This document shows, piece after piece, positions 19,543 to 36,697 of a DNA stretch of 64,000 nucleotides (the first letter of the stretch is position 1; each line of letters opens with the position of its first letter). The notes beneath the pieces are model-generated. The model did no database searches. It saw only the letters and a list, made by a program, of their open reading frames with translations, and was not told where the DNA came from. The stretch lies in contig JAFGCB010000024.1 in the NCBI GenBank assembly GCA_016932855.1, positions 2,813 to 66,812 on the forward strand. The letters are read 5' to 3'. Origin of the DNA: Candidatus Omnitrophota bacterium (GTDB lineage Bacteria > Omnitrophota > Gorgyraeia > Duberdicusellales > Duberdicusellaceae). A program made the position numbers and the translations under genes.

Positions 19543-19670
19543 TACAATGACAAATTTACACTAATTTTATTAGCCGTAATCCTTTTTAAGTTAACCCAGA
19601 TTATACCTTTTTTTTATCGGAGAATCAAGGTCGTTATAATCGGCAAAAACCATCTAGCACTATTCTCAAA

Positions 19671-19727
19671 TTCTTAAGAATATTGGAATAGTTAAGGGTG
19701 AATAAAGTATTCCAATATTCTTAAGAA
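19671..19727. repeat. perfect 20-bp inverted repeat (TTCTTAAGAATATTGGAATA / TATTCCAATATTCTTAAGAA) with 17-nt loop
   Basis: Read directly; a third partial direct copy TTGGAATAGCTAGG follows; lies between the stop of the downstream HK gene and the cysS upstream region. Confidence 0.8.
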
Positions 19728-19749
19728 CGTTGGAATAGCTAGGAATGGT

Positions 19750-21369
19750 TTAGGTAGACAAGGGTAAGGTTATTGTGAAGGTAGTGCCGTGGTTGGGCGT
19801 GCTTTCCACGTTTATCGTACCTTTATGGTTTTGGATTATTCCGTAGGTAATTGCCAGGCCAAGGCCGACGCCCTTTTCTTTCTTGGAGTAGAAAGCATCG
19901 AATATATGGGGCATATCCTCTTCTTTTATTCCTTTTCCTGTATCCTTTATCATTATAATAATGCTGTTTGTGTCCTGCAGCTTGTAGCCTGCAGCTGTAT
20001 TCAAGGTCGTTTCAACTACTATCTCTCCCCCATCCGGCATGGCATCTATAGCGTTTAATATTATGTTTAGAAAGGCCTGCTTAATTTGTTTTGAATCCAC
20101 CGAAACTTCGGGGATATCCTGGCAAAAGTTTTTCGCTAAGGAGATGTTTTGCTGTTTCAGTTTAATTTCGATTAATTCCAGGGTTTCCTCAAGAAGGTTG
20201 CGGACATTAGAAGGTTTAAGCTCTAAAGGCTTAGGAGAAGAAAATTCAAGGAGCTGTTTTACAATAGAGCCTATTCGGTCAAGTTCAGAAGGCACTATTC
20301 TTTTAAACTTCTTTCTAAATTCAGCATCAGCATATTTCTTATCAACATAATCAGCAAATGTCCTAATAGATGTTAAGGGATTCTTTATCTCATGAGCAAG
20401 CCCGGAAGCCATAGTCCCGGCAGCAGCAAGTCTTTCTGCCTGAAGAAGCTTAGCTTGGGTAGTCTGGAGCTCTTCTTGAAGAAGGGTTGTTCGGGAAAGC
20501 AAAAACCGCTCTGCCTTGCGTTGGAAATAGATGTATAGAAATGGACCAGCAGTTGCTAATACAAACATGCTTATTCCCATAGTGAGCCATGATTTTGTCT
20601 GATATCCTATGTAAAAAGGTAGTCCTAAAACGACAGTATACACTATAGTAAATATACTTACTCGAGTTGCAGCAATTTTAATGTCCATTAGTCGATATTT
20701 AATTATTGCATAAGTAATAAATAGTGGATAAAAACCAATCATTAAAATCGAATAAGGATATAAATGGATTCCAAAACTAGGCAAAAACTCGAATTCAGCT
20801 CCTATCCATCCTATCGTAACGCCAAGGATAAAGTATTTGAGCTGATTGCGTCGTATTCCAGTGGAGCGGTTATATGCTTTAATTATTAAGAAAAAATTAT
20901 AACCCAACAAAACCATGTAGAAGCCTACATAAAAAACTAAATAAATAATACTTTTTGTGTTAAGCCAGTCGTGCCAGTAGAATTGCTCAAAGATAAAGTT
21001 TAGTTTGCCTAAAAATAGGCGCGAGCGGCCATACCAATTTAAAAGTAGAAATAAAAAACTGAGTAGATAGATAGTTCGTATAAACCATTTCTTTTGAAGG
21101 CTTAAGTAGCGGATAACAAAGTGTGTGAAAAAAGCACAAACAAAAATCACGCCACTATAGCCAATTTGCCACCACAAGAGCGCTAAATTATATGATGTTT
21201 CAGGAAGACTCGAGGACACGCTACAGGCAAGTCCCCATAGACCACTAGATACCGCTACCCCGCTAAAAATTCTTGCAGAAGGGTTCTTTTTCCATTTGAG
21301 CAGAAGAAAAATCGCGATACCAAAGTTACTTACCGTGGTGATAATTGAAAATAGCGTAAAGAGCTTCAT
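19750..21369 (-). CDS. sensor histidine kinase with N-terminal 7TM sensor domain (HisKA_7TM-like)
   Basis: Multi-TM N-terminus with KYRLMDI motif shared with two paralogs; H-box LAHEIKNPLTSI; HATPase_c G-boxes; overlaps ispF by 4 bp. Confidence 0.8.
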   Translation of the reverse strand: MKLFTLFSIITTVSNFGIAIFLLLKWKKNPSARIFSGVAVSSGLWGLACSVSSSLPETSYNLALLWWQIGYSGVIFVCAFFTHFVIRYLSLQKKWFIRTIYLLSFLFLLLNWYGRSRLFLGKLNFIFEQFYWHDWLNTKSIIYLVFYVGFYMVLLGYNFFLIIKAYNRSTGIRRNQLKYFILGVTIGWIGAEFEFLPSFGIHLYPYSILMIGFYPLFITYAIIKYRLMDIKIAATRVSIFTIVYTVVLGLPFYIGYQTKSWLTMGISMFVLATAGPFLYIYFQRKAERFLLSRTTLLQEELQTTQAKLLQAERLAAAGTMASGLAHEIKNPLTSIRTFADYVDKKYADAEFRKKFKRIVPSELDRIGSIVKQLLEFSSPKPLELKPSNVRNLLEETLELIEIKLKQQNISLAKNFCQDIPEVSVDSKQIKQAFLNIILNAIDAMPDGGEIVVETTLNTAAGYKLQDTNSIIIMIKDTGKGIKEEDMPHIFDAFYSKKEKGVGLGLAITYGIIQNHKGTINVESTPNHGTTFTITLPLST

Positions 21370-21824
21370 TGAATAACAGCTACGCTAATGCAGAATAGGC
21401 ACTCTTTCCTGGCGGGGATTAGGCCTTCTTGAGATTTTACTTTGAGGTTGAGTTTAGTTTCAGGCAGTTTTAGGAGTTTGCAAAGGCTTTGCACTATTTT
21501 TTGTTTGAAGCTTTTAAGTTTCGGCCTTTCAAGGATTACGGTTATATCAATATTGTTTATTCTTCGCTTGCCGAGTAGTTTAAGGACTTTTTTAAGGATT
21601 TCTTTGCTTGAGATGCCTTTACATTTCGGGTCTTCCGGAGGAAAATAATCACCGATATCCCCTTTTCCTAATGCTCCTAATATGGCATCGCAGACACTAT
21701 GCAGTATTACGTCGGCATCAGAAATACCGGCTAAACCCTTTGTGTAAGGAATTTCCACCCCGCCAAGGATTAATTTTCTTCCTTTAACCAGTCTGTGAAC
21801 ATCGAAGCCGAGTCCAATCTTCAT
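21366..21824 (-). CDS. ispF: 2-C-methyl-D-erythritol 2,4-cyclodiphosphate synthase
   Basis: IGLGFDVHRL motif; 152 aa. Confidence 0.9.
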   Translation of the reverse strand: MKIGLGFDVHRLVKGRKLILGGVEIPYTKGLAGISDADVILHSVCDAILGALGKGDIGDYFPPEDPKCKGISSKEILKKVLKLLGKRRINNIDITVILERPKLKSFKQKIVQSLCKLLKLPETKLNLKVKSQEGLIPARKECLFCISVAVIQ

Positions 21825-21909
21825 TGTTTGTAAAATTGTTTTTCGGGCATAGCGTTTTGGGTGTGGGGTGCCGGGAAGAAACGAAACCCGATACGCGACA
21901 CCCGAAGAC

Positions 21910-24111
21910 CTACCGCTTTGTTGTTGGTAGTTCCATGTAAAAGGTTGAGCCCTTCATGTATTCCGATTCAAACCAGATTTTACCCCTGTGGTTTTCTTCA
22001 ACAATTCTTTTTATAACGTACATCCCAAGGCCGGTTCCGGATTTTGCCGATGATTTGGTGGTATAAAAAGGAGCGAACATCTTGGATTTATTCTCTTCGG
22101 CTATGCCGATCCCGTTATCACTGACTTTTACAAGCAAGGAACCTTCAAGAGGCTGTAATTCTATATTCAGCTCTTTTTCGACTTTTTGAGGATTTCCATG
22201 ATTTTTAAGAGCCATCTGCTTATCTTCTATTGCTTCATAAGCATTATCAATTAAGTTAAAAACTGCCTCGGATAGCTGGGCCGGCGAGCCCCAGACCTTG
22301 GGAGTACCGTCAGTAACTTTTATTGAAGGCTTAAAATCTTTGAGGTTATGCTTTACGCCTAAGAGGTCAACCGCAACGTTTATTATCTCGTTTATGTCGA
22401 AGAATCTAAAGGAAGCGTCTTTTTCAGTGCGGGCATAATTAAGAATTCCCCGGATAATCTGGGCTGAATGAAGCACGTTTTTTTCTATTTTATCAAGACC
22501 GTAGAGACAATATTCTAAATCCTTCCTTAAGTTTTCGGGGTTTTCTTTCTCAAGGGTAGTCTGCACTACGTCTTTTAAGTCTCCGGCAACCGCGGCAAAA
22601 GCCTGGAGACGGTTATTTAACTGGTGCGATACCCCTTCAGCCATAGCACCGACTGTAGCTAATTTATCAGCGTGGAATATCTTCTCCTGCGTTTTCTTAA
22701 ACTCTTCCAGAAACAAGCAGTTCTCAATTGCCAAAGAAGCCTGGTGCGCTAAAATCTTAAAGACATTTATATCATCCTCCGTAAAAACCTGCTTATTCGG
22801 TTTCGAGCCTAACGCTAATATGCCTAGAAGGTCTCTTTCGGTAAGTGAAGGGATTACTAAATGGAGCTTGAATCTTTCGAAAAATTCTTTAATTTCCTTT
22901 TGATTGGCGCTATCTTGAATAACAAAGGGGATATCTTCCAATAATAAAGCCTCTTGGGTTTTTAAAAGATATTCAATAATCGGATGGTCGTGAGAGATTG
23001 CAACCTCCTCTTTAAATAATTCTCTATCCCGGTAAGCTTCTAGTTTGTAAACCTTTCGTTCTTTGTCGAAACGGAATATCGCCGCTACATCGACCCGCAC
23101 AGCTTTCGTAACAATATGAACAATTAAATTGATAAGTCGTTTAAGTTCCCGAATTTTCACCATTCCCTGAGCAGCCTGGATTAGTGTTTTTTGGTATCTC
23201 TTTTGCTGGGCCAGTATAAGATTTTCAGCTTTCCTTCGTAAGCGTGTATAAATCAGAGGCCCGGTGCTTGCTAAAAGAAACATTATCGCAGTAGACGGAA
23301 GCCAGGATTGAGTGGTGTATCCTATCCAGAACGGAATACCGAGAACTAAGGCGTATACAAAAGAGAAAATTCCGAAGCGGGTCAAAACAACGTTGATGTC
23401 CATGAGACGGTATTTAAGTATTGCATAGGTAAATATCAAAGGATAGAGAACAATACAGAGGTTGCTATAAGGATAGAGTTTTACACCAATCTCTATTGAC
23501 CACATTAATATTGGACCTAGCCAGCCAATGACTGATGCAACTATGAAATATTTTATTTGATTTCGGAAAATGCCACTAGATCGCTTGTAAGATTTAACTA
23601 GTAATAAGAATGAGAATCCTAAAAGTATCCAGTAAAACGAAATGTAAAAAACCAAATATAGAGGTATTTTATATATCCACCAATCAGAGTAATAAAATTT
23701 ATTAAAAACAAAACTCATTCCGCCTACAAAATATTCCTTGGGGAAAAACAAATTTAGGGATAGGAAAGTGTAAGCCAGTGTATATATGGTAATTAATATA
23801 TATCTGAAATAATCCTTTTTGAGACTAAGGAATGTGTAGATGAAGTGATAATAAAGCACAGGAGTGAGGATAACTCCTATGTTGGCAATTCTCCGCCAGA
23901 AAATTGCAGTCTCAAGGTCAAAGGTTGTAGAGAATTTATATACACCTACGCCCCAAATTGTTGTGAGTATACATAGCCATCCCCAGATTTTAGTTTTAAT
24001 GTTACGAGTCTTTTTGTCTCTCCAGAACAAAAATATTGCCAATAGAGAATTGGTAACAACAACCAAAATTCCAGAAATGCTAAATAAGTTAATATTTTGC
24101 ATAAGAGGCAA
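21910..24111 (-). CDS. sensor histidine kinase, HisKA_7TM-like membrane domain + GAF + HisKA + HATPase_c
   Basis: 733 aa paralog of the 19750 and 34502 kinases; H-box GVSHQLNNRL; last gene of the lipid operon. Confidence 0.8.
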   Translation of the reverse strand: MPLMQNINLFSISGILVVVTNSLLAIFLFWRDKKTRNIKTKIWGWLCILTTIWGVGVYKFSTTFDLETAIFWRRIANIGVILTPVLYYHFIYTFLSLKKDYFRYILITIYTLAYTFLSLNLFFPKEYFVGGMSFVFNKFYYSDWWIYKIPLYLVFYISFYWILLGFSFLLLVKSYKRSSGIFRNQIKYFIVASVIGWLGPILMWSIEIGVKLYPYSNLCIVLYPLIFTYAILKYRLMDINVVLTRFGIFSFVYALVLGIPFWIGYTTQSWLPSTAIMFLLASTGPLIYTRLRRKAENLILAQQKRYQKTLIQAAQGMVKIRELKRLINLIVHIVTKAVRVDVAAIFRFDKERKVYKLEAYRDRELFKEEVAISHDHPIIEYLLKTQEALLLEDIPFVIQDSANQKEIKEFFERFKLHLVIPSLTERDLLGILALGSKPNKQVFTEDDINVFKILAHQASLAIENCLFLEEFKKTQEKIFHADKLATVGAMAEGVSHQLNNRLQAFAAVAGDLKDVVQTTLEKENPENLRKDLEYCLYGLDKIEKNVLHSAQIIRGILNYARTEKDASFRFFDINEIINVAVDLLGVKHNLKDFKPSIKVTDGTPKVWGSPAQLSEAVFNLIDNAYEAIEDKQMALKNHGNPQKVEKELNIELQPLEGSLLVKVSDNGIGIAEENKSKMFAPFYTTKSSAKSGTGLGMYVIKRIVEENHRGKIWFESEYMKGSTFYMELPTTKR

Positions 24112-25566
24112 TTATTTTCCAAATGGCCAATGTTTTCCGAGGTCTTCCAGGATTAACCGTGCGCATCGTCGTCCAGAAAATGCAACATTTGGGATACCGC
24201 CTTGCCCGGAAGAACCAGTGGTTGTCCAGTGGCCAACGAGATAGATCCCATCTATAGAAGTTCGTTGCGGAATAATATTAGATTTAATCTGGTTTAATGT
24301 AGATACCCATCCGAGTACGGCTCCGTTTTTATTTAAGGTGTACCGATGAAATGTATGCGGAGTGGCAAATATTTTGACGTCAATTAAATTACGGAGATCG
24401 TAAAAGACCTTCTCCGATTTTTTAATTATGCGATTGCCGACCTCTATTTTATTCTCATCCCAGAATTTCTTGGAAATATAAGGAGAATATATAAATAGTT
24501 GCATGGTCGGCCTATTGGTGTTGCTTAAGCTTATGTCATGAGCAGATGGGAAACAGCAGAAAAAGTAATCGAGGTCAGCGTTCAATATGTTATATTGCTG
24601 AGAATAAATTCTTGAGTACACTTTCTCGATATCGTAAGTGGCGAAATAGCAAGTATTTATTCTTTCAGCAATTTCATTGTGCGCGTTTTCTTTGAGACCT
24701 AAATATACCAAGAACATAGACGGAGATGGAGTTAGTTTATTAATTGTGTTAAGTTCCTTAGTTTTGACATCAATCAGGTCTCCGAATGTCATGGAAACGT
24801 CTGCATTCGAGATAATTATGTTAGATGCTATTTCATCGCTAGTATCTAGTATTACCTTTTTGATTTTATTAGTTGTAATTATCTTTACAACCTTGCGGGA
24901 GAAAATTATCTCTCCTCCTCGCTCTTTTAATTTCTTTACTAGCATATTTGGCAGAGTTTGAATGCCACCTTTTGGATAATAGCCAGAATCCAAAACATAC
25001 TCTCGAAATAGAATTATAGCTGAGATAGCTGCGGCTTTTTTAGGAGAAAGTGCAATATTACTTGATAGGCCACCTAAAACAGATTTTAGATTTGGATCTC
25101 GAAAAAAATAATCCAGGGTTTCTTGAAAGACTTGTCCCTTAACTTTTTTATAAATATTAAAAAGCTGTTCTTGCAGAATGAAGCCGAAAAACTTTTCAAG
25201 ATTTTTTCGTTCTTTAGGGAAGCTTTTTTGAAATTCCGTTAGTGTATTTTTGGGACAAGCCCGAATGTATGTAGTATTATCGGGGAATATTATTTTATCA
25301 GTTGGATCAGCTTGGGAAAATTCGAGGCTTTCGTCCATTTGTAGCTCTCGGAGAGTTTTGCCTAATATTCCTCGCTTGATGCCGCCTAGGTAGTGTACTC
25401 CAATGTCAAATTTATAACCCTTTCGTTCAAAAGAAGTGCAGTAGCCACCTGGTTTATCATGCTTTTCGATGATTAAAACCTTTAATCCGGCTTTTGATAA
25501 ATAATTTGCGCAGATTAAGCTTCCAATGCCAGAACCTACGAATATTGCATCAAATTGGGTGTTCAT
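24112..25566 (-). CDS. FAD-dependent oxidoreductase, phytoene desaturase (CrtI)-like family
   Basis: N-terminal dinucleotide-binding fold FDAIFVGSGIGSL...LIIEKHDKPGGY; 484 aa. Confidence 0.7.
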   Translation of the reverse strand: MNTQFDAIFVGSGIGSLICANYLSKAGLKVLIIEKHDKPGGYCTSFERKGYKFDIGVHYLGGIKRGILGKTLRELQMDESLEFSQADPTDKIIFPDNTTYIRACPKNTLTEFQKSFPKERKNLEKFFGFILQEQLFNIYKKVKGQVFQETLDYFFRDPNLKSVLGGLSSNIALSPKKAAAISAIILFREYVLDSGYYPKGGIQTLPNMLVKKLKERGGEIIFSRKVVKIITTNKIKKVILDTSDEIASNIIISNADVSMTFGDLIDVKTKELNTINKLTPSPSMFLVYLGLKENAHNEIAERINTCYFATYDIEKVYSRIYSQQYNILNADLDYFFCCFPSAHDISLSNTNRPTMQLFIYSPYISKKFWDENKIEVGNRIIKKSEKVFYDLRNLIDVKIFATPHTFHRYTLNKNGAVLGWVSTLNQIKSNIIPQRTSIDGIYLVGHWTTTGSSGQGGIPNVAFSGRRCARLILEDLGKHWPFGK

Positions 25567-26153
25567 TTAATGTAGTTAACGCTGTCTTTTATTGGCTTTC
25601 GGAGAGATCGTGTATTTCTCTGGCTCGCGTATCCGAGTGTGATTACAGCAACCATTTTGCCTTTGTGTCTAAGCAATTTATTTATTTTCTGTGCTTGAAG
25701 TAACGGCGTATCAAGCCAACAAGAGCCAACCCCAAAACTTTCCGCTACTAACATCATATTTTGTATAGCTGCGGCGATGGCGGACAGTTCAACAATATCA
25801 AGGATTCGCTCAAATTTTAAGTACAGTTGCTTGAGTCTGTGTCTCATTGCGTGCATATCTCCAGAATTATAAACAATAATGATGGCTGCCGCGCTACGAA
25901 TTATATTGCTTGCAGAATACTCTAGCAGATTGGATACTGTCTTCGTAGAGGAATCGGCTCTTAATAAAAGTTGAGCAATCTCAACTATAGTTTTTTTGTT
26001 AGTTATCGCGAAGAACTTCCATGGTTGGTAATGATGAACGGCAGGTCCCCATATTCCAGCTTCAATAATTTTCGAGAGAATATTATGAGGTATTCGTTTT
26101 TTCTTATATTCTCGTACACACTGTTTAGACTTTATTAAGCGTAATAATTCCAT
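25563..26153 (-). CDS. nitroreductase family protein
   Basis: 196 aa; N-terminal RIPHNILSKIIEAGIWGPAVHHYQPW nitroreductase-like; 4-bp overlap with the downstream gene. Confidence 0.6.
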   Translation of the reverse strand: MELLRLIKSKQCVREYKKKRIPHNILSKIIEAGIWGPAVHHYQPWKFFAITNKKTIVEIAQLLLRADSSTKTVSNLLEYSASNIIRSAAAIIIVYNSGDMHAMRHRLKQLYLKFERILDIVELSAIAAAIQNMMLVAESFGVGSCWLDTPLLQAQKINKLLRHKGKMVAVITLGYASQRNTRSLRKPIKDSVNYIK

Positions 26154-27241
26154 CTTTTTTCCCCGATTATATCATAAATCGACTTTTGTTCATGGTAATA
26201 TTGAAACGACGGCAATAATTTTTGATCAGTGATCTGTGGAATTCGGAAATTATAACCATCAAGAGTTTTTTGTGTATGTATATAACAGAATTTTGTTGTA
26301 TAGTTAAAGTAGGGTATATATGGTGATGCTAAGATTTTTTGCGCAGGAGTCCAATAAGAATAATCAAACCTCTCAGCCGGTATTAGCCTCGGTGTTCGAA
26401 ATTGAAAAAAACGCGAGGCCAAATCCATGAATTTACCAACATTAAAGGGTTTTGGCGAAACAACATGATAAGTAGTATTGCTGCCCTGATCCCCTAGTAA
26501 AAAAAATACTTTTGCCACTGTATCGATGTTGATTAGATTTTGGTGACAATCAATGTTGATAGGAAACTCATTGTAGATCTCTTTGGAAAAAAAACGAATC
26601 GGTTCGTAGAAAAGTCGGAAAGTGGTGGCTTGGCCAGTCTTGGAATGCCCTATAACCATACTAGGTCTAAAAACAGAAATATTCAGTCCTTTTACGCGAT
26701 AGTCTTGGACTAAAAGCTCGGCTTCATATTTTGTCTGTTCGTAGGTGTTGTTAAATCCCTGGCCGAGCTCTAATTCGTTCTCTCTAAAGTTATAGTCATT
26801 TTTTGTCCCTACTACGTATGCTGTGCTTATATGGTTAAACTTTTCAAGCTTCGGGAATTTCAAAGCGAAATCAAGAACATTTTTTGTGCCCAGAACGTTT
26901 ATTTTTCGGATTACTTCGAGTTCAACTCTTAATTTTGCCAGGGCTGCGCTGTGAAAGATTATTTCGCAATCAGCGCGAATCTCGTCGATTAATTGTTTTG
27001 ACTTTATGCCTAAGTCGGTTAAGGTAATATCGCCATCGACTATTACCAGGTTTTTTGGACTTTGGCTGGTATGTTCTTCAGTCCAGAATTTTAGGGCATT
27101 TAATACTCGCGCCCGCGCAGCTTCTTTTTTACTGCTTCTTGCCAGAGCATAGACTTTACAGCCATTCTCAAGCAGGATTTTTAAAAGATAAGAAGCAACA
27201 AATCCGGTTGCCCCGGTCAATAATACAATTCGTTTTTCCAT
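26135..27241 (-). CDS. thioester reductase-domain (NAD_binding_4, fatty acyl reductase-like) protein
   Basis: LLTGATGFVASYLL Rossmann motif, catalytic YEQTK, alternating CLVR/GDI/HSAA blocks typical of terminal reductase domains. Confidence 0.7.
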   Translation of the reverse strand: MEKRIVLLTGATGFVASYLLKILLENGCKVYALARSSKKEAARARVLNALKFWTEEHTSQSPKNLVIVDGDITLTDLGIKSKQLIDEIRADCEIIFHSAALAKLRVELEVIRKINVLGTKNVLDFALKFPKLEKFNHISTAYVVGTKNDYNFRENELELGQGFNNTYEQTKYEAELLVQDYRVKGLNISVFRPSMVIGHSKTGQATTFRLFYEPIRFFSKEIYNEFPINIDCHQNLINIDTVAKVFFLLGDQGSNTTYHVVSPKPFNVGKFMDLASRFFQFRTPRLIPAERFDYSYWTPAQKILASPYIPYFNYTTKFCYIHTQKTLDGYNFRIPQITDQKLLPSFQYYHEQKSIYDIIGEKRWNYYA

Positions 27242-27256
27242 TACAGTTCGCTAAGT

Positions 27257-28480: not shown

Positions 28481-29732
28481 TTATCGCGCTGGCGTTTCCT
28501 CCACCGGGGCCAAAATTGTTTATTAAAATATTATTAAGGGATTCATGCCTAGCTGAGTTAGGAACGTAATCAAGGTCACATCCGGATGCATTTCCTTCAA
28601 AATTTATTGTAGGAGGGATAACCGCATTTTTTAAAGCTCCTATAGAGGCCGCAATTTGTAATCCTCCATTGGCGCTTACGCTTTCACCGATCATTGACTT
28701 AATCGAGCTTACCGGGATGCTTTTCGAATAAAGTTTAAAGACTTTTTTTATGGCTTCAGTTTCAAGCGTATCCTGCACAGGGACTGAATTGGCAGAGGCG
28801 CAGATGTAGTCTATCTCTTCGGTATTAAGCTCTGCATTCTCTATTGCTCTTGTCATACTTTGGATAAGTCCCTCGGCCTTAGGGGCGTATTTACCGGTTT
28901 TGTAGGCGTCAAAAGAATTTTCAACGCTAAGAATTTCCGCCAGGATATTCGCCTTGCGTTTTTGAGCATATTCTTTATTTTCAATAACCAACGTCGTTGT
29001 TCCTTCGCCGAGAACTATGCCGTTATGTCTTTTATCGTAAGGACAGCTGATTTCAGGGCCTTTTAATCCGGCAAGAAATCCGATTTTATAAAATCCGGTA
29101 AAGTTGGAAAAGGAGAAGCTTTCAATCCCGCAGACAAGAACGATTTGAGCCCGGCCCAGTCTTATCAAATCAATAGCATACTTAAGGGCGTCAAGACCGG
29201 CTGTATAGCCGGTAGATATAGTCGTGTTGAAAGCCCTTGCTTTAAATCGTATAGACAACTGACTGGATGGAAAATTCATGGTAGTAGGCGGAAATAAAGC
29301 CGGGTTAACAAGCTGGGCTCCTTCGTCTACTTGTTCTTTAGTAAATTTTGCCAGATCCGAGGTAATTGAAAGCGTAGTCGCGGTTACCACTCCGATATCG
29401 TCAGCATTCTCGTCGGTTATCTGCAAGTTTGCGTCATCTAAGGCTAATTTTACTCCGGAGCAGAGCAGGGTTGTAGTGCGGTCAAGATTTCTTAAACCCT
29501 TAGTGCCTAAAAAATCTTCAGCTTTGAAATCAGTACATTCTCCGGCAGTTTTAGTCTTAAAAAAGGAGACATCAAAAAGAGTTATGGGTTTAATTCCCGA
29601 TTGGCCAGCATTGAGCGCTTTCCAAAAGGCTTCCTTGCCTGTTCCGTTAGGAGAAATAACACCGATTCCGGTAACTACGACTTGTTTGGCGTTCATTTTT
29701 TTACGTATCCAGGTTTCGTTCAATAATTTCAA
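28461..29732 (-). CDS. ketosynthase-like partner lacking catalytic residues (chain-length-factor-like)
   Basis: KS fold, but Cys replaced (ISTGYTAG) and both His replaced (CASANSV, MIGESVS); 20-bp overlap with the catalytic KS. Confidence 0.75.
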   Translation of the reverse strand: MKLLNETWIRKKMNAKQVVVTGIGVISPNGTGKEAFWKALNAGQSGIKPITLFDVSFFKTKTAGECTDFKAEDFLGTKGLRNLDRTTTLLCSGVKLALDDANLQITDENADDIGVVTATTLSITSDLAKFTKEQVDEGAQLVNPALFPPTTMNFPSSQLSIRFKARAFNTTISTGYTAGLDALKYAIDLIRLGRAQIVLVCGIESFSFSNFTGFYKIGFLAGLKGPEISCPYDKRHNGIVLGEGTTTLVIENKEYAQKRKANILAEILSVENSFDAYKTGKYAPKAEGLIQSMTRAIENAELNTEEIDYICASANSVPVQDTLETEAIKKVFKLYSKSIPVSSIKSMIGESVSANGGLQIAASIGALKNAVIPPTINFEGNASGCDLDYVPNSARHESLNNILINNFGPGGGNASAIIAKYEE

Positions 29733-30078
29733 GAAATTCGTTTGTATCGAACGGTTTATGCAGGTAGCCGGCGACTTTTAAGTTGACTGCCGATTTGTAT
29801 TTATCTTCGTCCACAAAACCGGTAATGAAAACTTCGGGAATCGGTGCTTTTCCCTGTTTTTGGCGAAAGTCACGAATTGACTTTATGGTTTCTATGCCGT
29901 CCATCTCCGGCATTCGTATATCGCAGACTATCATATGGAAATCGTCATTTTGAATCTTCGTAAGAGCATCCGCTCCCCCGTAAGCAATCGTTACCTCATA
30001 GCCTTTCTCTTGGAGTAATTTTTGCAGACTTTTCGTTATAATTTTCTCATCCTCGATTATTAAGATTTTATTTTTCAT
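29701..30078 (-). CDS. single-domain response regulator (CheY-like receiver)
   Basis: 125 aa; acidic pocket IEDE and phospho-Asp in VCDIRMPEMDG; embedded in the lipid operon. Confidence 0.8.
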   Translation of the reverse strand: MKNKILIIEDEKIITKSLQKLLQEKGYEVTIAYGGADALTKIQNDDFHMIVCDIRMPEMDGIETIKSIRDFRQKQGKAPIPEVFITGFVDEDKYKSAVNLKVAGYLHKPFDTNEFLEIIERNLDT

Positions 30079-30548
30079 TATACGCCCCTTTTGTTATTTT
30101 CTTTTAATTTGACTCCGAAAAAAATACGCGCTCGCGCCACTACTTCGTTTTCGACTAAGGCACGGGCTTCGACCATCCCGCTATTATTAAGGATTTTTGC
30201 GGCATTGACTTCTAGAGTCAGCTGGCTACCTGCGGATACAGGCTTAAGGAAATGCGCGTCGACTTTTCCAAGATAATACGACGGTTTTTTATTGGCAATA
30301 TCAGGTTTAAGGACGGAATAAAGGATAATGCTTGCTTGGGCCAGAGCTTCGATGATTATGGCGCCGGGAACAACGGGGTTTTTCGGGAAATGCCCCTGAA
30401 AGAAATGTTCGTTGTAGGAAAAATTTTTCAGGCACTTTATTTTTTTATCCTTTTCGTTAATTTCGGTCACTCTATCGATAAATAAAAACGGATAGTCTTG
30501 GGGAAGAATTGCTTTGATTTGTTCGATATCCCAAATCGCACTCATCAT
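30078..30548 (-). CDS. 3-hydroxyacyl-ACP dehydratase, FabZ/FabA hot-dog family
   Basis: HFFQGHFPKNPVVPGAIIIEALAQ catalytic His motif. Confidence 0.8.
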   Translation of the reverse strand: MMSAIWDIEQIKAILPQDYPFLFIDRVTEINEKDKKIKCLKNFSYNEHFFQGHFPKNPVVPGAIIIEALAQASIILYSVLKPDIANKKPSYYLGKVDAHFLKPVSAGSQLTLEVNAAKILNNSGMVEARALVENEVVARARIFFGVKLKENNKRGV

Positions 30549-30797
30549 TCATTTGTTTAGTGACTTTAAGACAACTTCATATACATTCTCTAGAGACCGT
30601 ATATTCGGTATTTCTTCTTCAGGTATGGTTACTTTATATTTCTTTTCAATGCTGGCTACAATTTCTAATGCCATCATGCTGTCTACGCCCAGCTCGTCGG
30701 CAAAGCTGGCATCATCACGAAGCTCACTTTCGGGCATTTCCACGATCTCCGAGACAGCCTTTTTTATTTCTTTTTTGATTTGTTCAGGCTTGGCCAT
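30549..30797 (-). CDS. acyl carrier protein
   Basis: 82 aa; phosphopantetheine attachment site DLGVDSMMALE. Confidence 0.85.
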   Translation of the reverse strand: MAKPEQIKKEIKKAVSEIVEMPESELRDDASFADELGVDSMMALEIVASIEKKYKVTIPEEEIPNIRSLENVYEVVLKSLNK

Positions 30798-30815
30798 AGG
30801 CCTCCTTTCTTTAAA

Positions 30816-31565
30816 TTAAATTGCCAATCCTCCGTCGATCTTTATAACTTCACCTGTTATGTATTCAGATTCACCGGAAGCAAGAAACGCGCAGAGGTTT
30901 GCAACTTCGTTTGCGGTCCCCATCCTTTTTACTGGTATATTTTCGATTATCTTTTTTTTGACATCATCGCGTAAAGCGGTGACCATCTCCGTGGCGATAT
31001 ATCCGGGGCATATGGTATTGACTCGGATATTGTATGACGCAATTTCTTTTGCCAGGGCTTTCGAAAAGCCGATTATGCCGGCCTTTGAAGCGCAGTAATT
31101 AGTTTGCCTTGGCGTTCCTGTTAAACCGCTAACAGAGCTGATATTTAGGATACATCCGCTTTTTTGTTTAAGTAGAGTAGTAATGCAGGCTCTTGTCATA
31201 TTGAATGTGCCGTTTAGGTTTGTATCAATGACGTCTTTCCAGTCTTCCAGGGTCATCATCATTAAGGCTTTATCTTTTATTATGCCGGCATTATTTATTA
31301 AAATATCGATTTTCCTGAAATTATCAAGGGTTTTAGTGACTATTTCCCGGCATTGACCATAGTCGCGTACATCTGCCTGTAAGCTTAAATGCTTACATTG
31401 GCAAGTTTTTAGTTTTTTGGCTAATTCTTGGGCTTCGTCTTTACTTTTAGCGTAGGTAAAGACTACATTTGCACCTAGCTGTGCAAAGAGTTCGCAACAG
31501 GCCCGGCCTATTCCGCGAGAGCCACCGGTAATTATAGCAGTCTGATTTTTAAGCGTTTTTTCCAT
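30816..31565 (-). CDS. fabG: 3-oxoacyl-ACP reductase (SDR)
   Basis: TGGSRGIGRA cofactor motif; NAG, S..YxxxK catalytic residues. Confidence 0.85.
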   Translation of the reverse strand: MEKTLKNQTAIITGGSRGIGRACCELFAQLGANVVFTYAKSKDEAQELAKKLKTCQCKHLSLQADVRDYGQCREIVTKTLDNFRKIDILINNAGIIKDKALMMMTLEDWKDVIDTNLNGTFNMTRACITTLLKQKSGCILNISSVSGLTGTPRQTNYCASKAGIIGFSKALAKEIASYNIRVNTICPGYIATEMVTALRDDVKKKIIENIPVKRMGTANEVANLCAFLASGESEYITGEVIKIDGGLAI

Positions 31566-31664
31566 AAATTTCTTTAGGTCTTAATTATCTCACTGCAAAA
31601 AAGATATGTAAAGCTTATATTTTCATAGCGTTACGCAAAAAAATGTCTATTCGAATACCGCGTT

Positions 31665-33017
31665 TTATTCCTTCGTCACAATAAAAAAATAAATGTAGCC
31701 GAAGTTGTCAGATTCCAGTATAAGTGCTGAATTTGGAATTCCTGAATCAAGAAATAACTTTCTTACGTCATCCTTTGTTCGGGAGACAAATTTCCAGTCG
31801 CAAAACCAATCCGGGCAAATAGGCGGAATGGTCTTTTCACGATTTTTATGAGTCATTATTATTTTACCATTTTTTTCCAATACCTGAAACAAGGCAAAAA
31901 TGAGCTTTTTTAGGACTCTATCCGGCAAATAGTCAATGAGTCCTATGCTGTAGATTAAGTTTTGTTTTACGGGCAGGTGAGCGATCTGTTTATTTCTTTC
32001 AATATTAACCCCTTGTAGGTGCGAAAAGTGAAATTTAATATTCGGAAACTGCTGGTTAGCAAAAGCCTCGGCTGAGAATTTCAAGGCTTCGCCATCCCAA
32101 TCAAGGCATCTGAAAATCACTGTTTTTTCAGTTTTAAGGCTGAGTAAAAGTTCTCTTATTTCTCTGCAGCAGCTGCAGGCAATGCTTAGAATATGTACCG
32201 GTGAAGCTGGAGTTTCGTGAATAAACTCGGTAATAAGGTTTTTAAGGCGGTCTTTACGTGACCGGGCAGCTACCGCGTAAGGGCTTTTTAGAAAAATGTT
32301 ATCGAAATAAAGACCTATATTTTGGGAAACAGGTTTATTTGAATAAATAAATTCAAGAGCCCGGTGGTCTTCGGAATAGCCCCGGGGTTTGTCAAAGGCC
32401 TGTTTTACGATAATGCTTTTATATATCCAGGCGTCTACCAGGCGCCGGAAGTTGTCTTTAATCCGCTGGGTAGTCTTTTTATCGGCAAGAATAAGCTCCA
32501 GGCTGTAACCTTTTAAGAGGATTTTATTATTTAATTGTTCTATAATAGATTCTAATTCAGGTAGATAGGTTTTGTCGGTATAGGTGCCGGGAATAAGACG
32601 GGTTATTTCAGTTATATATTCAAACATATCTTTGGTAAAAAAATCCCGGACCAATAATCTAGCATCAGATTTCCTAATATCTCGAAGAAGTTGGCTTATT
32701 TGAGCTTTGATTAATTCCTTTCTTAAAGACGTTTTTTCATTTTCGTTAAGTCCGGTAAACTCGAGGCCATAGATGGTGTTGCCGTTATCGACAGTTTTTC
32801 GCCAGGCAAGTTTAGCGGTAGTTTTTATTTTAGAGGTTTTACCGGGGAAATTTATTTGTAAGGAGATTTCCGGACTCGATATCACTTGCGATGCGACAAA
32901 ACTTACCCCTCCTTCGCTTAGGTCAATCGAATCACCCGCGCTTTTAGGGGAAAATTTGAGTTTTAAGTTTGCCTTTATTCTGGGATAAGCCCGTTTTTCC
33001 TGGTAATTTTTATTCAT
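31665..33017 (-). CDS. PilZ domain - class I SAM-dependent methyltransferase-like fusion protein
   Basis: N-terminal RAYPR...DLSEGG PilZ motifs; C-terminal ILSIACSCCREI / LDWDGE / IYSIGLIDYL resemble MTase motifs I, post-I and II. Confidence 0.5.
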   Translation of the reverse strand: MNKNYQEKRAYPRIKANLKLKFSPKSAGDSIDLSEGGVSFVASQVISSPEISLQINFPGKTSKIKTTAKLAWRKTVDNGNTIYGLEFTGLNENEKTSLRKELIKAQISQLLRDIRKSDARLLVRDFFTKDMFEYITEITRLIPGTYTDKTYLPELESIIEQLNNKILLKGYSLELILADKKTTQRIKDNFRRLVDAWIYKSIIVKQAFDKPRGYSEDHRALEFIYSNKPVSQNIGLYFDNIFLKSPYAVAARSRKDRLKNLITEFIHETPASPVHILSIACSCCREIRELLLSLKTEKTVIFRCLDWDGEALKFSAEAFANQQFPNIKFHFSHLQGVNIERNKQIAHLPVKQNLIYSIGLIDYLPDRVLKKLIFALFQVLEKNGKIIMTHKNREKTIPPICPDWFCDWKFVSRTKDDVRKLFLDSGIPNSALILESDNFGYIYFFIVTKE

Positions 33018-33057
33018 ACGCTAATTTACGCTAATTATAAAGCTAATTTCCGCGAAT
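33018..33057. repeat. intergenic motif A copies (ACGCTAATTT, ACGCTAATTA, AAGCTAATTTCCGCGAAT) with ~10-bp phased GCGAAT/ACTAAT units
   Basis: Read directly; repeat-rich spacer 33018-33124 upstream of the PilZ-MTase gene. Confidence 0.6.
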
Positions 33058-33124
33058 CAAGATGCGAATTTAAAGCGAATTTACACTAATCTACGACGAA
33101 TTAAGACTAATAATACATATCACA

Positions 33125-33577
33125 TTAAACGCTTGAATAAGCATTTCGCGAAGAGGAGATAATTCTTTTTTTATCCAGAATTCTGCGCCTTATATCGATT
33201 TTTGTAGCGCCAAAGTTGATTATATATCCTAATTTATAATTCGTACCTTTTAAGTAATTGTATAGCTGAGTTTCATAGAATTTCGGCATAATTTCCACGG
33301 CTTTTATTTCTATGATAATTTTCTTATCAATAATGAAGTCCGGGGTATAATAACCCGCAGTTTTGTTTTTGTACTTTATCGGAATGCGCCTTTCTTCTTC
33401 GTGCGTAATATTTTTAAGCGCGAATTCGATTGTCAGCGCCTTACGGTAAACCGATTCCTTAAAGCCCGGTCCAAGTTCATTATAAACTTCAAAGAAACAG
33501 CCCACAATATCATAGGAAAGGTCCTTATATAATAGATTCTTGCAATTTTTACTCTTTATACGCATAGAATTTTTCAA
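33125..33577 (-). CDS. GxxExxY family protein (PD-(D/E)XK nuclease-like fold)
   Basis: IVGCFFEVYNELGPGFKESVYRKAL signature; 150 aa. Confidence 0.75.
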   Translation of the reverse strand: MKNSMRIKSKNCKNLLYKDLSYDIVGCFFEVYNELGPGFKESVYRKALTIEFALKNITHEEERRIPIKYKNKTAGYYTPDFIIDKKIIIEIKAVEIMPKFYETQLYNYLKGTNYKLGYIINFGATKIDIRRRILDKKRIISSSRNAYSSV

Positions 33578-33617
33578 TCCGCGAAAATTAGTTTAATCAA
33601 TTAGCGAGAATTAGCGT

Positions 33618-33998
33618 TTAAATAATAGTTTTTTTAATCGCCTCTAAAAGCACTGCGTTGTCAAAAGGTTTGTATAAATGCTCTGCTACTTTTAGTTTCA
33701 TCGCTTCCTGGTATTTCTCCATATCAGCATAACCTGTTATTAAAATCTCAGGGATTTGCTTCTTTTTTGCTTTATTTAAGTAGCTGCGGATTTGTTTAAT
33801 TATTTCAATGCCGTCCGCCTCGGGAATTCTGATATCGCAGATAATAAGATTAAAATCAGTTTCCTTTATTTTTTCTAAAGCTTCTTTCCCGCTTTGAGCA
33901 ATGCTTGTTTCATAGCCCGAGGTTTTTAAAAGCATGGATACGCTCTTTGTTACCAGCTCTTCGTCGTCAATCAATAGAATTCTTTTGCTCATAATCAA
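33618..33998 (-). CDS. single-domain response regulator (CheY-like receiver)
   Basis: 126 aa; clear paralog of the 29701 RR (ICDIRIPEADGIEIIKQIR...ILITGY). Confidence 0.8.
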   Translation of the reverse strand: MIMSKRILLIDDEELVTKSVSMLLKTSGYETSIAQSGKEALEKIKETDFNLIICDIRIPEADGIEIIKQIRSYLNKAKKKQIPEILITGYADMEKYQEAMKLKVAEHLYKPFDNAVLLEAIKKTII

Positions 33999-34076
33999 GC
34001 TCCTTTATAAGGGATTCCAGAGATTATTAAAATAGATTACAGAGATTAAATAAATATTACGTTGATTGCGCATTGA

Positions 34077-34487
34077 TTACGGTGATTTTAAATTCAGCCT
34101 TCGTATTTTGCAGCTTTTATTGCCAAAGTTTATCAATAAACCTACATTATAACCTGAGACTTTCATGTAAGACAAAAGCTGCGCTTCGAATAGCCTAGGC
34201 ATGATTCCGGTTACAGCCTTAACTTCGACTATTACCGAATTTTCAATAATTAGATCTATACGAAGAGTTCCGACTTTACGGCTGCGATAATCTACTTTAT
34301 ATTCGCTTTTCGTTGAGTACTTTAGGCCCGCGTCATTTAATGCCAGGTTTAAAGAATTATGATATATTTTTTCATTAAACCCCGGACCTAATTCGCTGTG
34401 AACTTTATACGCACAAGCGATGATTTTTTCCGTAAGCGGATCTCTTTCTTTAATCTTTGAAATCGGTTTCTTAATCTCTGTAATTAT
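34077..34487 (-). CDS. GxxExxY family protein, second paralog; no canonical start codon in frame
   Basis: My own minus-strand translation gives ...EIKKPISKIKERDPLTEKIIACAYKVHSELGPGFNEKIYHNSL...NFGNKSCKIRRLNLKSP*. The frame has no ATG/GTG/TTG near the expected N-terminus (only ATA/ATT) and runs on into the 3' end of the HK gene in another frame. It is absent from the ATG-based ORF track. Confidence 0.5.
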   Translation of the reverse strand: MITEIKKPISKIKERDPLTEKIIACAYKVHSELGPGFNEKIYHNSLNLALNDAGLKYSTKSEYKVDYRSRKVGTLRIDLIIENSVIVEVKAVTGIMPRLFEAQLLSYMKVSGYNVGLLINFGNKSCKIRRLNLKSP

Positions 34488-34501
34488 TGAAGAATATTTT
34501 G

Positions 34502-36697
34502 TTAACTTTTTACTTTGCTTTCTTCTTTCATTGCAGGGAGTTGCACGGTGAATACGGCGCCTTGGTTGGGTTCGGATTCTACTGAAATCGTGCCTTTATG
34601 CTTTGCGATAATTGAATGGCAGATAGAAAGCCCTAGACCAAGTCCTTTGCCTACGTCTTTCGTAGTAAAAAACGGGTCGAATATTTTGGAAAGAATACCT
34701 TGTGGTATGCCCGGACCTTCATCTTGGACTTCAATCATTATCGTTTCATCTTTTTTTGAGATAGCTACATGTATTATACCACTTTTCTTTAAGCGTTTAA
34801 TCGCGTCTTTTGCGTTGAGGATTAGATTGGTTACGACTTGTTCAAGCTCATTGTGATTACCGGAAACAAAATATCCGCCTTCGTCTATTTGAGTGTTTAT
34901 TTTGATATTTTCCTGCTCTAACTGGTAGCTGATAAAAGCAATGGTTATATCTAATACTTTTCTTAAATCGACTTTATCAAGTCGTGCGGATTCAAGAGGC
35001 TTCTTGGCGTAAGTCATAAGTTTCTGGACAATTGTCCGGCATCGTTTCGTCGCCTCCTCTATCAGTTCCAGTGATTCTCTGTCTAATTCCGAATCAATCG
35101 GTTTAGCGGCTAAAAGCATTTGAACATTAGTAAGGATTGCGGTTAAGGGGTTATTTATTTCATGGGCCACTCCTCCGGCCAGGGTGCCTACTGTTGCTAA
35201 CTTTTCTGCCTGAACGAGTTGGTTCTGGACTTCCATTAGTTCTTTGGTCCGCTGGCGCACCTGTTCTTCAATATTTTCATAGCGCAAGGCATTATCAATA
35301 GCCAAAGCAGCTTCGGTTACAAAAACAGAAAAGTTATGTAAATCTTCCGAGGTGTAAGGCCTTTTGGAGAGTTTGTCTCCCAAAATAAGGATGTTTAGCA
35401 ATTTTTCTTCCAGGAAACTAGCCACGACTACCTTGGCGTTTAAAAGGGCCATTTCGCTTTCTAGCTGCGTAAAGACAGAGTCAGGATTGTCTTCGGATTT
35501 TCGTTTTACTTCTTCGTATACAAGGGGTTCGTTTTGCTTTTCAAGGTAGTGAATTAAAGGATTTTTTTTGTCGATGGAAATCGGCTGTTTTTCGTTTAGA
35601 TTGCGGCCGGCTTTAAGGATAAATTGGTTAAATTCCGGATCAAAAAGATAAATTGCGGAATGAGAAATACGGACGGTCTTAGTAATCGTATAAGCAATAA
35701 AATCCAGAAGCTTCTTTGAATTACGGATACGGGCTATTCCGATTGCGGCCTGCTTTAGCGTTTCCTGATAGCTGCGCTGTTCCCGCAAAAGTATTGCTTC
35801 AGCGTTTCGCAGTAAATATATATACGCAAAAGGGCCAGTGGTTGCCAAGATTGCCATAAGAATGAGAGGTCCCAGCCACCAGTTTGTCCCCAAAAAAATA
35901 ATTAACCAATCTTTGCCAGCATTGATTAAAAGAAAAGGCAAGCCAAGTACGATAGTGTAAACTGCAACGAATATAGCAGTGCGAGTTACGACTACGCGGA
36001 TATCCATTAGGCGGTATTTGACGATAGCGTAAGCCATCAGGAGTAAATAAATTATAGTCAAAACATCATGCGGAAAAGAAATCTTGATCCCGAAGACTGA
36101 GAGAAAATAAATAGCTGAACCTAGAAAGCCGATAAATGTAGCTAATAGAAAATATTTAAGTTGATCATTCTTATGGGCTATTGATTTTTTATAAAAGGAA
36201 TATGCTTTACAGAAACCGTATGTCGCATATGAGTACCAATAAAAAAGAAAAAAGTAATAACTCACCCCTGGAACGAGATGCGTTTTAATAAAAGGCAAGT
36301 TGCTAGGAGTAATTTCTCTAAAGAAAAAAGGACTAAGCGTTAATAGAAAGCATAATGGAGAAAGAATGAACGAAGACCGGGCCAGATAAAGACCGATTCG
36401 ATCATTTTCTATCTTTTTGCCAGCTATATTATATACAACTAATAGCCAAAACGCAGGCATAAAGGAAACCGGTGCAAAAAAAAGTTTCTCGTAGAATATT
36501 GATGTCGCTACATTTTGTTTCGTCATTGTTATAAAGTGACTAAAACACCAGCTGCTAATGCAAAGACTAAAAACAAAAAAAACAAAGTTTAGGCTGTTTT
36601 TAATGTTTTTGAGTAATACAAAAACACCAATCCCGAAACTAATTAATACAGCGCTTAGGGTAACGGCCTGGTATACGTTCATACTTATATCCGGCAT
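34502..36697 (-). CDS. sensor histidine kinase, HisKA_7TM-like membrane domain + GAF-like + HisKA + HATPase_c
   Basis: 731 aa; third paralog; H-box GVAHEINNPLTAI; KYRLMDIRVV motif in the membrane domain. Confidence 0.8.
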   Translation of the reverse strand: MPDISMNVYQAVTLSAVLISFGIGVFVLLKNIKNSLNFVFFVFSLCISSWCFSHFITMTKQNVATSIFYEKLFFAPVSFMPAFWLLVVYNIAGKKIENDRIGLYLARSSFILSPLCFLLTLSPFFFREITPSNLPFIKTHLVPGVSYYFFLFYWYSYATYGFCKAYSFYKKSIAHKNDQLKYFLLATFIGFLGSAIYFLSVFGIKISFPHDVLTIIYLLLMAYAIVKYRLMDIRVVVTRTAIFVAVYTIVLGLPFLLINAGKDWLIIFLGTNWWLGPLILMAILATTGPFAYIYLLRNAEAILLREQRSYQETLKQAAIGIARIRNSKKLLDFIAYTITKTVRISHSAIYLFDPEFNQFILKAGRNLNEKQPISIDKKNPLIHYLEKQNEPLVYEEVKRKSEDNPDSVFTQLESEMALLNAKVVVASFLEEKLLNILILGDKLSKRPYTSEDLHNFSVFVTEAALAIDNALRYENIEEQVRQRTKELMEVQNQLVQAEKLATVGTLAGGVAHEINNPLTAILTNVQMLLAAKPIDSELDRESLELIEEATKRCRTIVQKLMTYAKKPLESARLDKVDLRKVLDITIAFISYQLEQENIKINTQIDEGGYFVSGNHNELEQVVTNLILNAKDAIKRLKKSGIIHVAISKKDETIMIEVQDEGPGIPQGILSKIFDPFFTTKDVGKGLGLGLSICHSIIAKHKGTISVESEPNQGAVFTVQLPAMKEESKVKS

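Follow-up and report, generated by a model that had tools for sequence, protein, structure and literature searches.

Kinases and Regulators Encoded at the Locus

We analyzed a 64,000-nucleotide stretch of DNA (the window; positions 2,813 to 66,812 of contig JAFGCB010000024.1, assembly GCA_016932855.1) from an uncultured Omnitrophota bacterium. The locus under study contains three HisKA_7TM sensor kinases (HK1, HK2, and HK3) and two receiver-only response regulators (RR1 and RR2), which lie among genes for lipid synthesis (Table 1). An original prediction, which was made from the letters of the window, had pointed out these five genes, and Pfam searches (PF16927 and PF00072) found all of them on the minus strand; no other kinases or receivers were encoded in the window. 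The minus strand held every gene between 15.5 and 60 kb. Read 5' to 3' on that strand, the upstream part of the locus consisted of ispD, a 229-amino-acid (aa) open reading frame (ORF), an HTH_17 gene, a PlsC-type acyltransferase gene, a gene for an SRPBCC protein with similarity to acyl-acyl carrier protein (acyl-ACP) reductases, a B12-binding radical S-adenosylmethionine (SAM) protein gene, and HK3. HK3 was followed by a PD-(D/E)XK_3 frame that lacks a start codon, RR2, a PD-(D/E)XK_3 gene, a PilZ-methyltransferase gene, fabG, the ACP gene, a FabZ/ApeI-like dehydratase gene, and RR1. The downstream part contained two ketosynthase (KS) genes, an NAD_binding_4 reductase gene, a nitroreductase gene, a CrtI-like oxidase gene, HK2, ispF, HK1, and cysS. 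Promoter and terminator scans of the locus performed no better than on shuffled sequence, so operon structure was read from gene spacing alone.

A scan with PF16927 placed the three kinases about twofold above the gathering score of 28.6 bits (HK1, 55.1 bits; HK2, 52.3 bits; HK3, 55.5 bits), as expected from the family originally assigned to them. A HATPase_c domain (PF02518) was identified in all three (82 to 93 bits). The HisKA model PF00512 matched HK1 (42.8 bits; H-box HEIKN) and HK3 (50.6 bits; HEINN). It had no match in HK2, in which the His and the Asn of the H-box were kept and a Gln stood in place of the acidic residue. The N, D-x-G-x-G, and G-x-G-x-G columns were conserved in both of these H-box classes. 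Two of the motifs first used to group the kinases, KYRLMDI and VLG[LI]PF, were present as quoted; the third, RNQ[LI]KYF, reads DQLKYF in HK3. A GAF domain had been proposed for two kinases, but only the GAF domain of HK2 scored above threshold. The HK3 match to GAF_3 was 22.9 bits versus a cut-off of 27, but a full-length alignment with HK2 and the GAF matches of an HK3 orthologue (P0103) support the assignment of a GAF domain to HK3.

Hydropathy and AlphaFold both indicated that the sensor has 9 transmembrane helices and not 7, and hydropathy placed the N-terminus on the outside of the membrane and the C-terminus on the inside. The AlphaFold model (pLDDT of 94) contained the 9 helices and a short beta-hairpin, which was located in the largest outside loop (about 30 residues); the other loops were short. 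The sensor is a polytopic bundle that is almost entirely intramembrane, and the conserved RNQLKYF and KYRLMDI motifs were at its cytoplasmic face. We found no solved structures that resembled the HisKA_7TM sensor. BLASTP alignments of HK1 with HK2 (38% identity over 444 aa; E value of 2e-76), HK2 with HK3 (31.6% over 684 aa; 3e-91), and HK1 with HK3 (37% in the kinase core and 30% in the sensor), with pairwise E values spanning 1e-31 to 1e-91, supported the homology of the sensor domain among the three kinases.

RR1 and RR2 matched PF00072 with 91.5 and 89.8 bits, respectively. Both are single-domain regulators of 124 to 125 aa in which an output domain is absent, and both retain the acidic pair, the Asp that accepts the phosphoryl group (D53 in RR1 and D55 in RR2), the Thr, and the Lys. 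They were 50% identical (E value of 3e-45), in agreement with the idea that they are paralogs. Together with the regulators of two related loci (L088 and L097; compared loci are given as L numbers here), they formed one subfamily whose members have in common an insertion of 5 residues in the alpha3-beta4 loop and an alpha1 helix with the conserved sequence V/I-T-K-S-L. The regulators had also been called orphans. This description did not hold, since RR2 follows HK3 and is the conserved neighbor of HK3 in other genomes.

Conserved Gene Order of the Lipid Island

The housekeeping genes that flank the locus form the string mcsA, mcsB, clpC, mla genes, radA, PIN/TRAM, ispD ... ispF ... cysS, tmk, holB, PSP1, metG, and tatD. 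In L094, which is from another Omnitrophota genome and has an ispF that is 65% identical, the same string was found with ispD overlapping ispF, cysS following, and neither the lipid genes nor HK1 present. In L097, a shorter set of genes occupied the same site, in the order ispD-[HTH_17, PlsC, reductase-like, unknown ORF, HK3 type, RR, PilZ/methyltransferase]-ispF; the synthase genes, HK2, and HK1 were all absent. Because the backbone occurs without the island in L094 and with a shorter one at this site in L097, we concluded that the lipid genes are an insertion between ispD and ispF. Searches of the island identified none of the signs of a classical mobile element, namely, direct repeats at its flanks, a tRNA, an integrase, or an Rfam family.

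The gene order in L088 was HTH_17, unknown ORF, PlsC, reductase-like, NAD_binding_4, HK3 type, RR, RR, FabG, KS, ACP, dehydratase, KS, oxidase, KS, and HK2 type. L088 and the window thus had in common an internal kinase of the HK3 type, a terminal kinase of the HK2 type (H-box HQINNRF in L088), and two regulators, and the HK3 orthologue P0103 occupied the same island position as HK3. The HTH_17-PlsC-reductase order was kept in both L088 and L097. In the window, the HTH_17 stop codon abuts the PlsC start codon, and the same small excisionase/MerR-like gene heads the clusters in L088, L089, L093, and L097, which makes the HTH_17 protein a candidate cluster regulator.

A kinase was originally placed at the end of the run of lipid genes, and the start of HK2 does directly follow the stop codon of the CrtI-like oxidase gene, so that HK2 is the last gene of the fatty-acid-synthase-like module. 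As in the window, an HK2-type kinase followed a nitroreductase and/or a CrtI-like oxidase gene in L004, L088, L092, and L093, for a total of five contigs. Specifically, L092 and L093 had a nitroreductase gene, an oxidase gene, and then the kinase at the module end; L004 had KS, NAD_binding_4, nitroreductase, HK2-type kinase, RR, and HD-GYP genes; and the L088 kinase came after oxidase-KS. In addition, the closest named HK2 relative (in L089) follows HTH_17, KS, ACP, and aminotransferase genes. These comparisons showed that an HK2-type kinase is a recurrent last gene of the fatty-acid-synthase-like module and that HK3-RR2-PilZ/methyltransferase is a conserved core of the island. The recurrence of the association in L004, L088, L092, L093, and L097 supported the proposed link between the signaling genes and lipid biosynthesis.

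A Model for Control of the Lipid Island

The reading that we favor, and regard as probable, is that the region from about 21.9 to 40.6 kb is an island of ~18.7 kb for a specialized lipid pathway, which has the HTH_17 gene at its head, carries its own two-component genes, was inserted between ispD and ispF, and is feedback-controlled by these two-component genes. In the simplest model, the sensors would read an intramembrane signal, most plausibly the lipid product of the island or the state of the bilayer, because the sensor lies almost wholly within the membrane and the gene order is conserved. HK3 would phosphorylate RR2 and probably RR1 as well, since the two regulators are similar and have the alpha1 recognition helix in common. 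As the regulators have no output domain, they would act through protein contact, with the neighboring PilZ-methyltransferase or the HTH_17 protein as candidate targets. HK2 would add a second input. It may work mainly as a phosphatase because a Gln replaces the acidic residue beside the phospho-accepting His and the Asn at H+4 is kept; mutagenesis has shown that kinase activity requires the acidic residue at H+1 and that phosphatase activity requires a Thr or Asn at H+4 (Willett and Kirby 2012; PMC3510030). The net outcome would be feedback control of lipid synthesis.

A number of observations weighed against this model. First, the gene-order comparison covered about 10 loci that were picked by similarity and by size of contig, so these loci are not phylogenetically independent. 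Second, the location of RR1 within the synthase genes was unique to the window genome; in L004, L088, and L092, no regulator gene separated the neighboring dehydratase and ketosynthase genes, and L093 lacked the dehydratase gene and had ACP followed directly by KS. Third, HK2-type kinases were also found away from lipid genes, in the dcw cell-wall cluster of L002/L003 and in the signaling-only clusters of L005, L009, and L085. Fourth, the many paralogs per genome and the long co-directional gene strings mean that some adjacency is due to chance. Fifth, the only curated NCBIfam cut-offs that were reached by island enzymes were those of generic FabF and FabZ subfamily models. For example, the cyanobacterial acyl-ACP reductase model TIGR04058 matched residues 166 to 497 of the 522-aa reductase-like protein with 183.9 bits versus a cut-off of 449.7, which indicated a related protein and not an equivalog. 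Finally, the output step is a guess because the receivers have neither an output domain nor a DNA-binding regulator tied to them, and HK2 retains every ATP-binding motif, which argues against a kinase-dead HK2.

Some of these observations would also fit the idea that the kinases are general envelope sensors, or sensors of other signals, from an expanded family, and that they are located beside lipid genes due to gene packing and an insertion-tolerant locus and have no part in regulating the island. The family is large, and clustered HisKA_7TM genes are common in Omnitrophota (two in L005, two in L009, three with three receivers in L085, two in L088, and the adjacent locus tags KJ593_08080 and KJ593_08085). 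Moreover, lipid islands are prone to insertion (PD-(D/E)XK_3 genes in the window; AAA_14 and AbiEii genes in L092 and L093), and HK1 is clearly a chance insertion, as described below. We nevertheless considered coincidence unlikely. The same kinase subtype was found in the same position across the five contigs listed above, even though the HK2-type kinases of L004, L088, L092, and L093 were only 35 to 47% identical to HK2, and HK3-RR(-PilZ/methyltransferase) was retained inside the island in three contigs. In addition, the start and stop codons abut at the oxidase-HK2 junction, nearly abut at the radical SAM-HK3 junction, and overlap at the dehydratase-RR1 junction.

Relationships and Origin of the Three Kinases

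The original prediction explained the repeated genes by local duplication. In that case, one kinase-regulator module would have been copied recently in place, and the copies would have been rewired to the adjoining lipid and isoprenoid genes. The three kinases do have the PF16927 sensor in common and are all located within 17 kb. In addition, the HK1 sensor was the tenth-best match to the HK2 sensor among 1.84 billion cluster representatives, so these two sensors are fairly close within the family. To place the kinases, their kinship was ranked against these cluster representatives and about 230 family members. A search with the sensor domain identified 2,820 representatives at an E value of ≤1e-3 and 135 at ≤1e-30, and nearly all of the named homologs of the window kinases were from Omnitrophota.

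The family alignment (n = 231) divided cleanly by H-box into 134 H-Q and 97 H-E members. The HQ class (H-Q-x-(N/K)-N-R) had a Q at H+1 and an N at H+4 in 134/134 members and an R at H+5 in 129/134, and it keeps intact N, G1, and G2 boxes. Nearly all of its members (130/134) were proteins of about 720 aa with a GAF domain, which we refer to as the HK2 type. The HE class (H-E-I-K-N-P-L) had the E, N, and P in 97/97 members, 70 of which were about 540 aa long (HK1 type) and 27 of which were long and carried a GAF domain (HK3 type). The H-box classes and architectures of the window kinases therefore differed, which is not what one would expect of recent copies.

The three kinases were 26 to 43% identical to each other per domain (31 to 38% in the BLASTP alignments). 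In contrast, HK2 had relatives in other Omnitrophota genomes at 56% identity overall and 74% in the core, and an HK3 relative (P0103 in L088) was 49% identical overall and 69% identical in the core; the HK3 relative in L097 was 44% identical. Neighbor-joining trees were built separately for the sensor and the core (n = 227 to 230), and any pair of window kinases fell within a split of ≤10 taxa in 0/50 bootstrap replicates in both cases. We left the placement of the HK3 sensor in the neighbor-joining tree out of the interpretation, as it resembled an artefact of long branches or of the alignment. The HK1 sensor nested among the long HQ kinases (up to 55% identity), and the HK1 core was in the HE clade, where it was most similar to the short HE members (up to 55%). 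Judging from these alignments, HK1 is chimeric, with a sensor of the HK2 type joined to a short canonical H-E core.

Because each window kinase has closer relatives in other Omnitrophota genomes, HK1, HK2, and HK3 are members of three old subfamilies and not local copies. The conserved positions of HK3-RR2 and of HK2 in other genomes also argued against copying in place, as did the regulators. RR2 was 63% identical to the L097 regulator, 55% identical to RRb of L088, and 50% identical to RR1, and the RR1/RR2 duplication is therefore old. Local duplication is already largely refuted, and we consider it very improbable.

Six long representatives (P0411, P0416, P0419, P0427, P0443, and P0459; 960 to 1250 aa) matched the sensor in two or three separate stretches, which suggests that these proteins may carry tandem HisKA_7TM bundles.

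HK1 and the ispD-ispF Backbone

The 4-bp overlap of ispF and a kinase gene was confirmed; the ispF stop codon overlaps the HK1 start codon as ATGA (21366-21369). We found no kinase between ispF and the conserved cysS promoter in L094, L097, or L095. In L095 and L096, which are short contigs from a third source, the order was HK2 orthologue, ispF, and then directly the cysS promoter. HK1 and the two 47-nt palindromic repeats next to it are a further insertion between ispF and the cysS promoter that is private to the window lineage, and the ispF-HK1 overlap is a by-product of the DNA insertion site. Wiring of the module to isoprenoid metabolism, in which the overlap would make HK1 a functional partner of ispF that senses or controls flux through the methylerythritol phosphate (MEP) pathway, is thus most improbable, even with ispD and ispF flanking the whole region, given that ispF goes without a kinase in L094, L097, and L095, that the nearest full-length HK1 relatives are in signaling clusters and not near ispF, and that ispD and ispF overlap each other where the island is absent. 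The overlap is a tempting feature to over-read; it marks an insertion site and not a functional coupling.

Each of the 47-nt units (19647-19754) is an imperfect palindrome (TATTCCAA..TTCTTAAGAA..TTGGAATA). The units could be a terminator, an operator, or a scar of the HK1 insertion.

The spacer between HK2 and ispF (21825-21909) is 85 nt long and unusually GC-rich. The corresponding spacer of L095/L096 (L095 2370-2718) is 350 nt long, is also GC-rich, and looks structured. An Rfam search that covered the window gave no match. At the edge near ispD, the L097 gap equivalent to the 229-aa ORF contained no called gene.

The backbone order mcsA-mcsB-clpC-(unknown, mlaE, ABC ATPase, mlaD)-radA-PIN/TRAM-ispD-ispF-cysS was observed in the window (42740-52470, minus strand) and in L094. 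The genes between clpC and radA include an inserted Mla lipid-transport cassette, which is conserved in L094. The backbone order resembles the ctsR-clpC-radA-yacL-ispDF-cysS region of Bacillus.

Comparison with Known Systems

The arrangement is ordinary in kind, in that two-component genes with a catalogued sensor domain are found in a biosynthetic cluster. The literature that we found on HisKA_7TM consisted of census papers, and it gave no known signal for the sensor. The conserved, position-specific tie to one lipid island provides a testable candidate for the HisKA_7TM signal, namely, the island lipid or the state of the membrane.

DesK/DesR of Bacillus subtilis is a system in which an intramembrane-sensing kinase controls a lipid desaturase. 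Like DesK, the window sensor consists essentially of bundled membrane helices, lacks an outside domain of any size, and is genetically tied to a lipid-modifying pathway, which makes a lipid-state feedback loop the natural reading. However, DesK has 5 helices, a HisKA_3 phospho-acceptor, and no GAF domain, and DesR binds DNA, whereas the window kinases have 9 helices (PF16927), a HisKA domain or the H-Q variant, and mostly a GAF domain, and their regulators are receiver-only. We found no sequence relationship between DesK and the window sensors. In its probable mode of action, the system is nevertheless most similar to lipid feedback of the DesK type.

In layout, the kinases also resemble PrsK of XrtA/PEP-CTERM systems (TIGR02916), which has a multi-helix N-terminus, a GAF domain, and a kinase core and is found in an envelope biosynthesis locus. 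HK2 matched TIGR02916 with 81.4 bits versus a cut-off of 300, which excludes it from the PrsK family, and the match (residues 306 to 729) spanned the GAF domain and the core only. Moreover, no PrsR-type sigma-54 activator, PEP-CTERM, or exosortase genes were present.

In some networks, several kinases converge on a single-domain receiver, as do KinA-E on Spo0F and DivJ/PleC on DivK. The window likewise has several paralogous kinases and receiver-only regulators, and we infer that the window kinases may converge on shared regulators. By analogy to PleC, the H-Q class could be phosphatase-biased. In the window, we found neither a Spo0B- or ChpT-like phosphotransferase nor a DNA-binding regulator that could be the terminal component.

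Work by Rattray in 2009 is said to be relevant to ladderane-type clusters. The island resembles ladderane-type and aryl-polyene-like clusters in having a KS pair, ACP, FabG, an ApeI/FabZ-like dehydratase, a PlsC-type acyltransferase, a CrtI-like oxidase, and a B12-binding radical SAM protein. With TIGR04072 (rSAM_ladder_B12), taken as the marker of ladderane-type clusters, the island radical SAM protein scored 80.1 bits versus a cut-off of 360. Genome mining has called "ladderane-type" and aryl-polyene-like type II clusters in non-anammox phyla, including Omnitrophota, and the "ladderane" calls in Omnitrophota metagenome-assembled genomes (MAGs) were given no functional assignment; the passages of that report that matched our search terms had no mention of embedded HisKA_7TM kinases and receiver-only regulators (PMC9902471).

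It is tempting to combine these points into one picture. The H-Q-x-N-N-R class (134/231) would be naturally kinase-weak and phosphatase-biased and would act on receiver-only regulators in push-pull with H-E kinases. If a PilZ (c-di-GMP)-gated methyltransferase is added, the result would be a previously undescribed membrane-lipid homeostasis circuit for a "ladderane-like" lipid island across Omnitrophota, in which the 9-helix sensor would be a direct receptor for the lipid product. Taken as a whole, this picture is speculative, and we doubt that all of it will prove to be correct.

PilZ-Methyltransferase and Other Features of the Locus

The gene downstream of RR2 and the PD-(D/E)XK_3 gene encodes a protein of about 450 aa with a PilZ domain and a class I SAM methyltransferase domain, for which the NCBIfam search returned no match. 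The domain content suggests a methyltransferase that is gated by cyclic di-GMP (c-di-GMP). The L097 orthologue (8577-9929; 58% identity) is located directly after the regulator, and the L005 PilZ-methyltransferase gene (27-1394) overlaps a 7TM kinase gene. A related methyltransferase gene also precedes a HisKA_7TM kinase gene in L002/L003, where the HK2-type kinase of the cell-wall cluster sits right after it, and a relative with the methyltransferase domain only does so in the Nitrospirota contig L008. Genes linked to c-di-GMP recurred at the compared loci (PilZ in the window, L093, and L097; HD-GYP in L004 and L085; GGDEF near L093). The H-Q class of H-box and the recurrent pairing of PilZ-methyltransferases with kinases provide leads for the study of two-component and c-di-GMP signaling in uncultured phyla.

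The PD-(D/E)XK_3 gene between RR2 and the PilZ-methyltransferase gene was absent at the same junction in L097. The second PD-(D/E)XK_3 frame had 140 open codons and was 35% identical to the first (E value of 1e-21). It contained no ATG, GTG, or TTG start and was uncalled in the source annotations, and it is either a fresh pseudogene or a user of a non-canonical start. The insertion of PD-(D/E)XK_3 genes on either side of RR2 explains the 503-bp gap between HK3 and RR2. Lipid clusters elsewhere were interrupted by AAA_14/DUF4143 genes and an AbiEii/HTH pair (L092 2200-3504 and 7106-8386; L093 6823-7980). As with the PD-(D/E)XK_3 genes of the window, lipid islands seem to accumulate selfish or defense-type insertions.

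Table 1. Genes and other features of the locus, in order of window position
Feature	Position	Strand	Remarks
cysS promoter, conserved	19628-19600		Kept in L094, L097, and L095
Tandem 47-nt palindromic units (two)	19647-19754	.	Directly 3' of HK1, upstream of the cysS promoter
HK1, short HisKA_7TM kinase	19750-21369	-	9-helix sensor (AlphaFold pLDDT of 94), H-box HEIKNPL, HATPase_c (Pfam); identical to JW734_02540 (NCBI MAG protein, "Candidatus Omnitrophica bacterium")
ispF	21366-21824	-	PF02542, 182.6 bits; housekeeping backbone, outside the signaling module
HK2, HisKA_7TM-GAF kinase	21910-24111	-	H-box HQLNNRL, ATP-binding motifs intact; likely start ATG 24102
CrtI-like amine oxidase	24112-25566	-	Pfam/NCBIfam
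Nitroreductase-family protein	25563-26153	-	Pfam/NCBIfam
NAD_binding_4 thioester reductase	26135-27241	-	Pfam/NCBIfam
FabF-like ketosynthases (two)	27257-28480 and 28461-29732	-	Pfam/NCBIfam
RR1, receiver-only regulator	29701-30078	-	Between dehydratase and ketosynthase; D10, D53, T86, K108
FabZ/ApeI-like dehydratase	30078-30548	-	
ACP	30549-30797	-	
FabG	30816-31565	-	
PilZ-class I SAM methyltransferase fusion	31665-33017	-	Weak Methyltransf_20 match
PD-(D/E)XK_3 (GxxExxY-type)	33125-33577	-	PF13366, 126.8 bits
RR2, receiver-only regulator	33618-33998	-	D12, D55, T88, K110; likely start ATG 33992
PD-(D/E)XK_3, second reading frame	34077-34499	-	Fills the HK3-RR2 gap
HK3, HisKA_7TM-GAF-HisKA-HATPase kinase	34502-36697	-	H-box HEINNPL; GAF supported by alignment; likely start ATG 36682
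B12-binding radical SAM protein	36710-38179	-	
SRPBCC and acyl-ACP-reductase-like protein	38244-39812	-	522 aa
PlsC-type acyltransferase	39802-40398	-	
HTH_17 small DNA-binding protein	40399-40584	-	61 aa; island head
229-aa ORF	40716-41405	-	Hydrophobic N-terminus, no Pfam match
ispD	41966-42652	-	PF01128, 209.4 bits; upstream edge of the insertion

An intergenic motif, CGCGGAAATTAGC, often with ATTAGTGTAAATT nearby, was observed at 8901, 16512, 16533, 19527, 33020, 33042, and 33580. The CGCGGAAATTAGC motif had 9 matches versus 2.5 expected. Three genes (alr, cysS, and the PilZ-methyltransferase gene) had the motif in their 5' leaders, and it was also present in two further gaps. These sites may thus share a regulatory element or a repeat.

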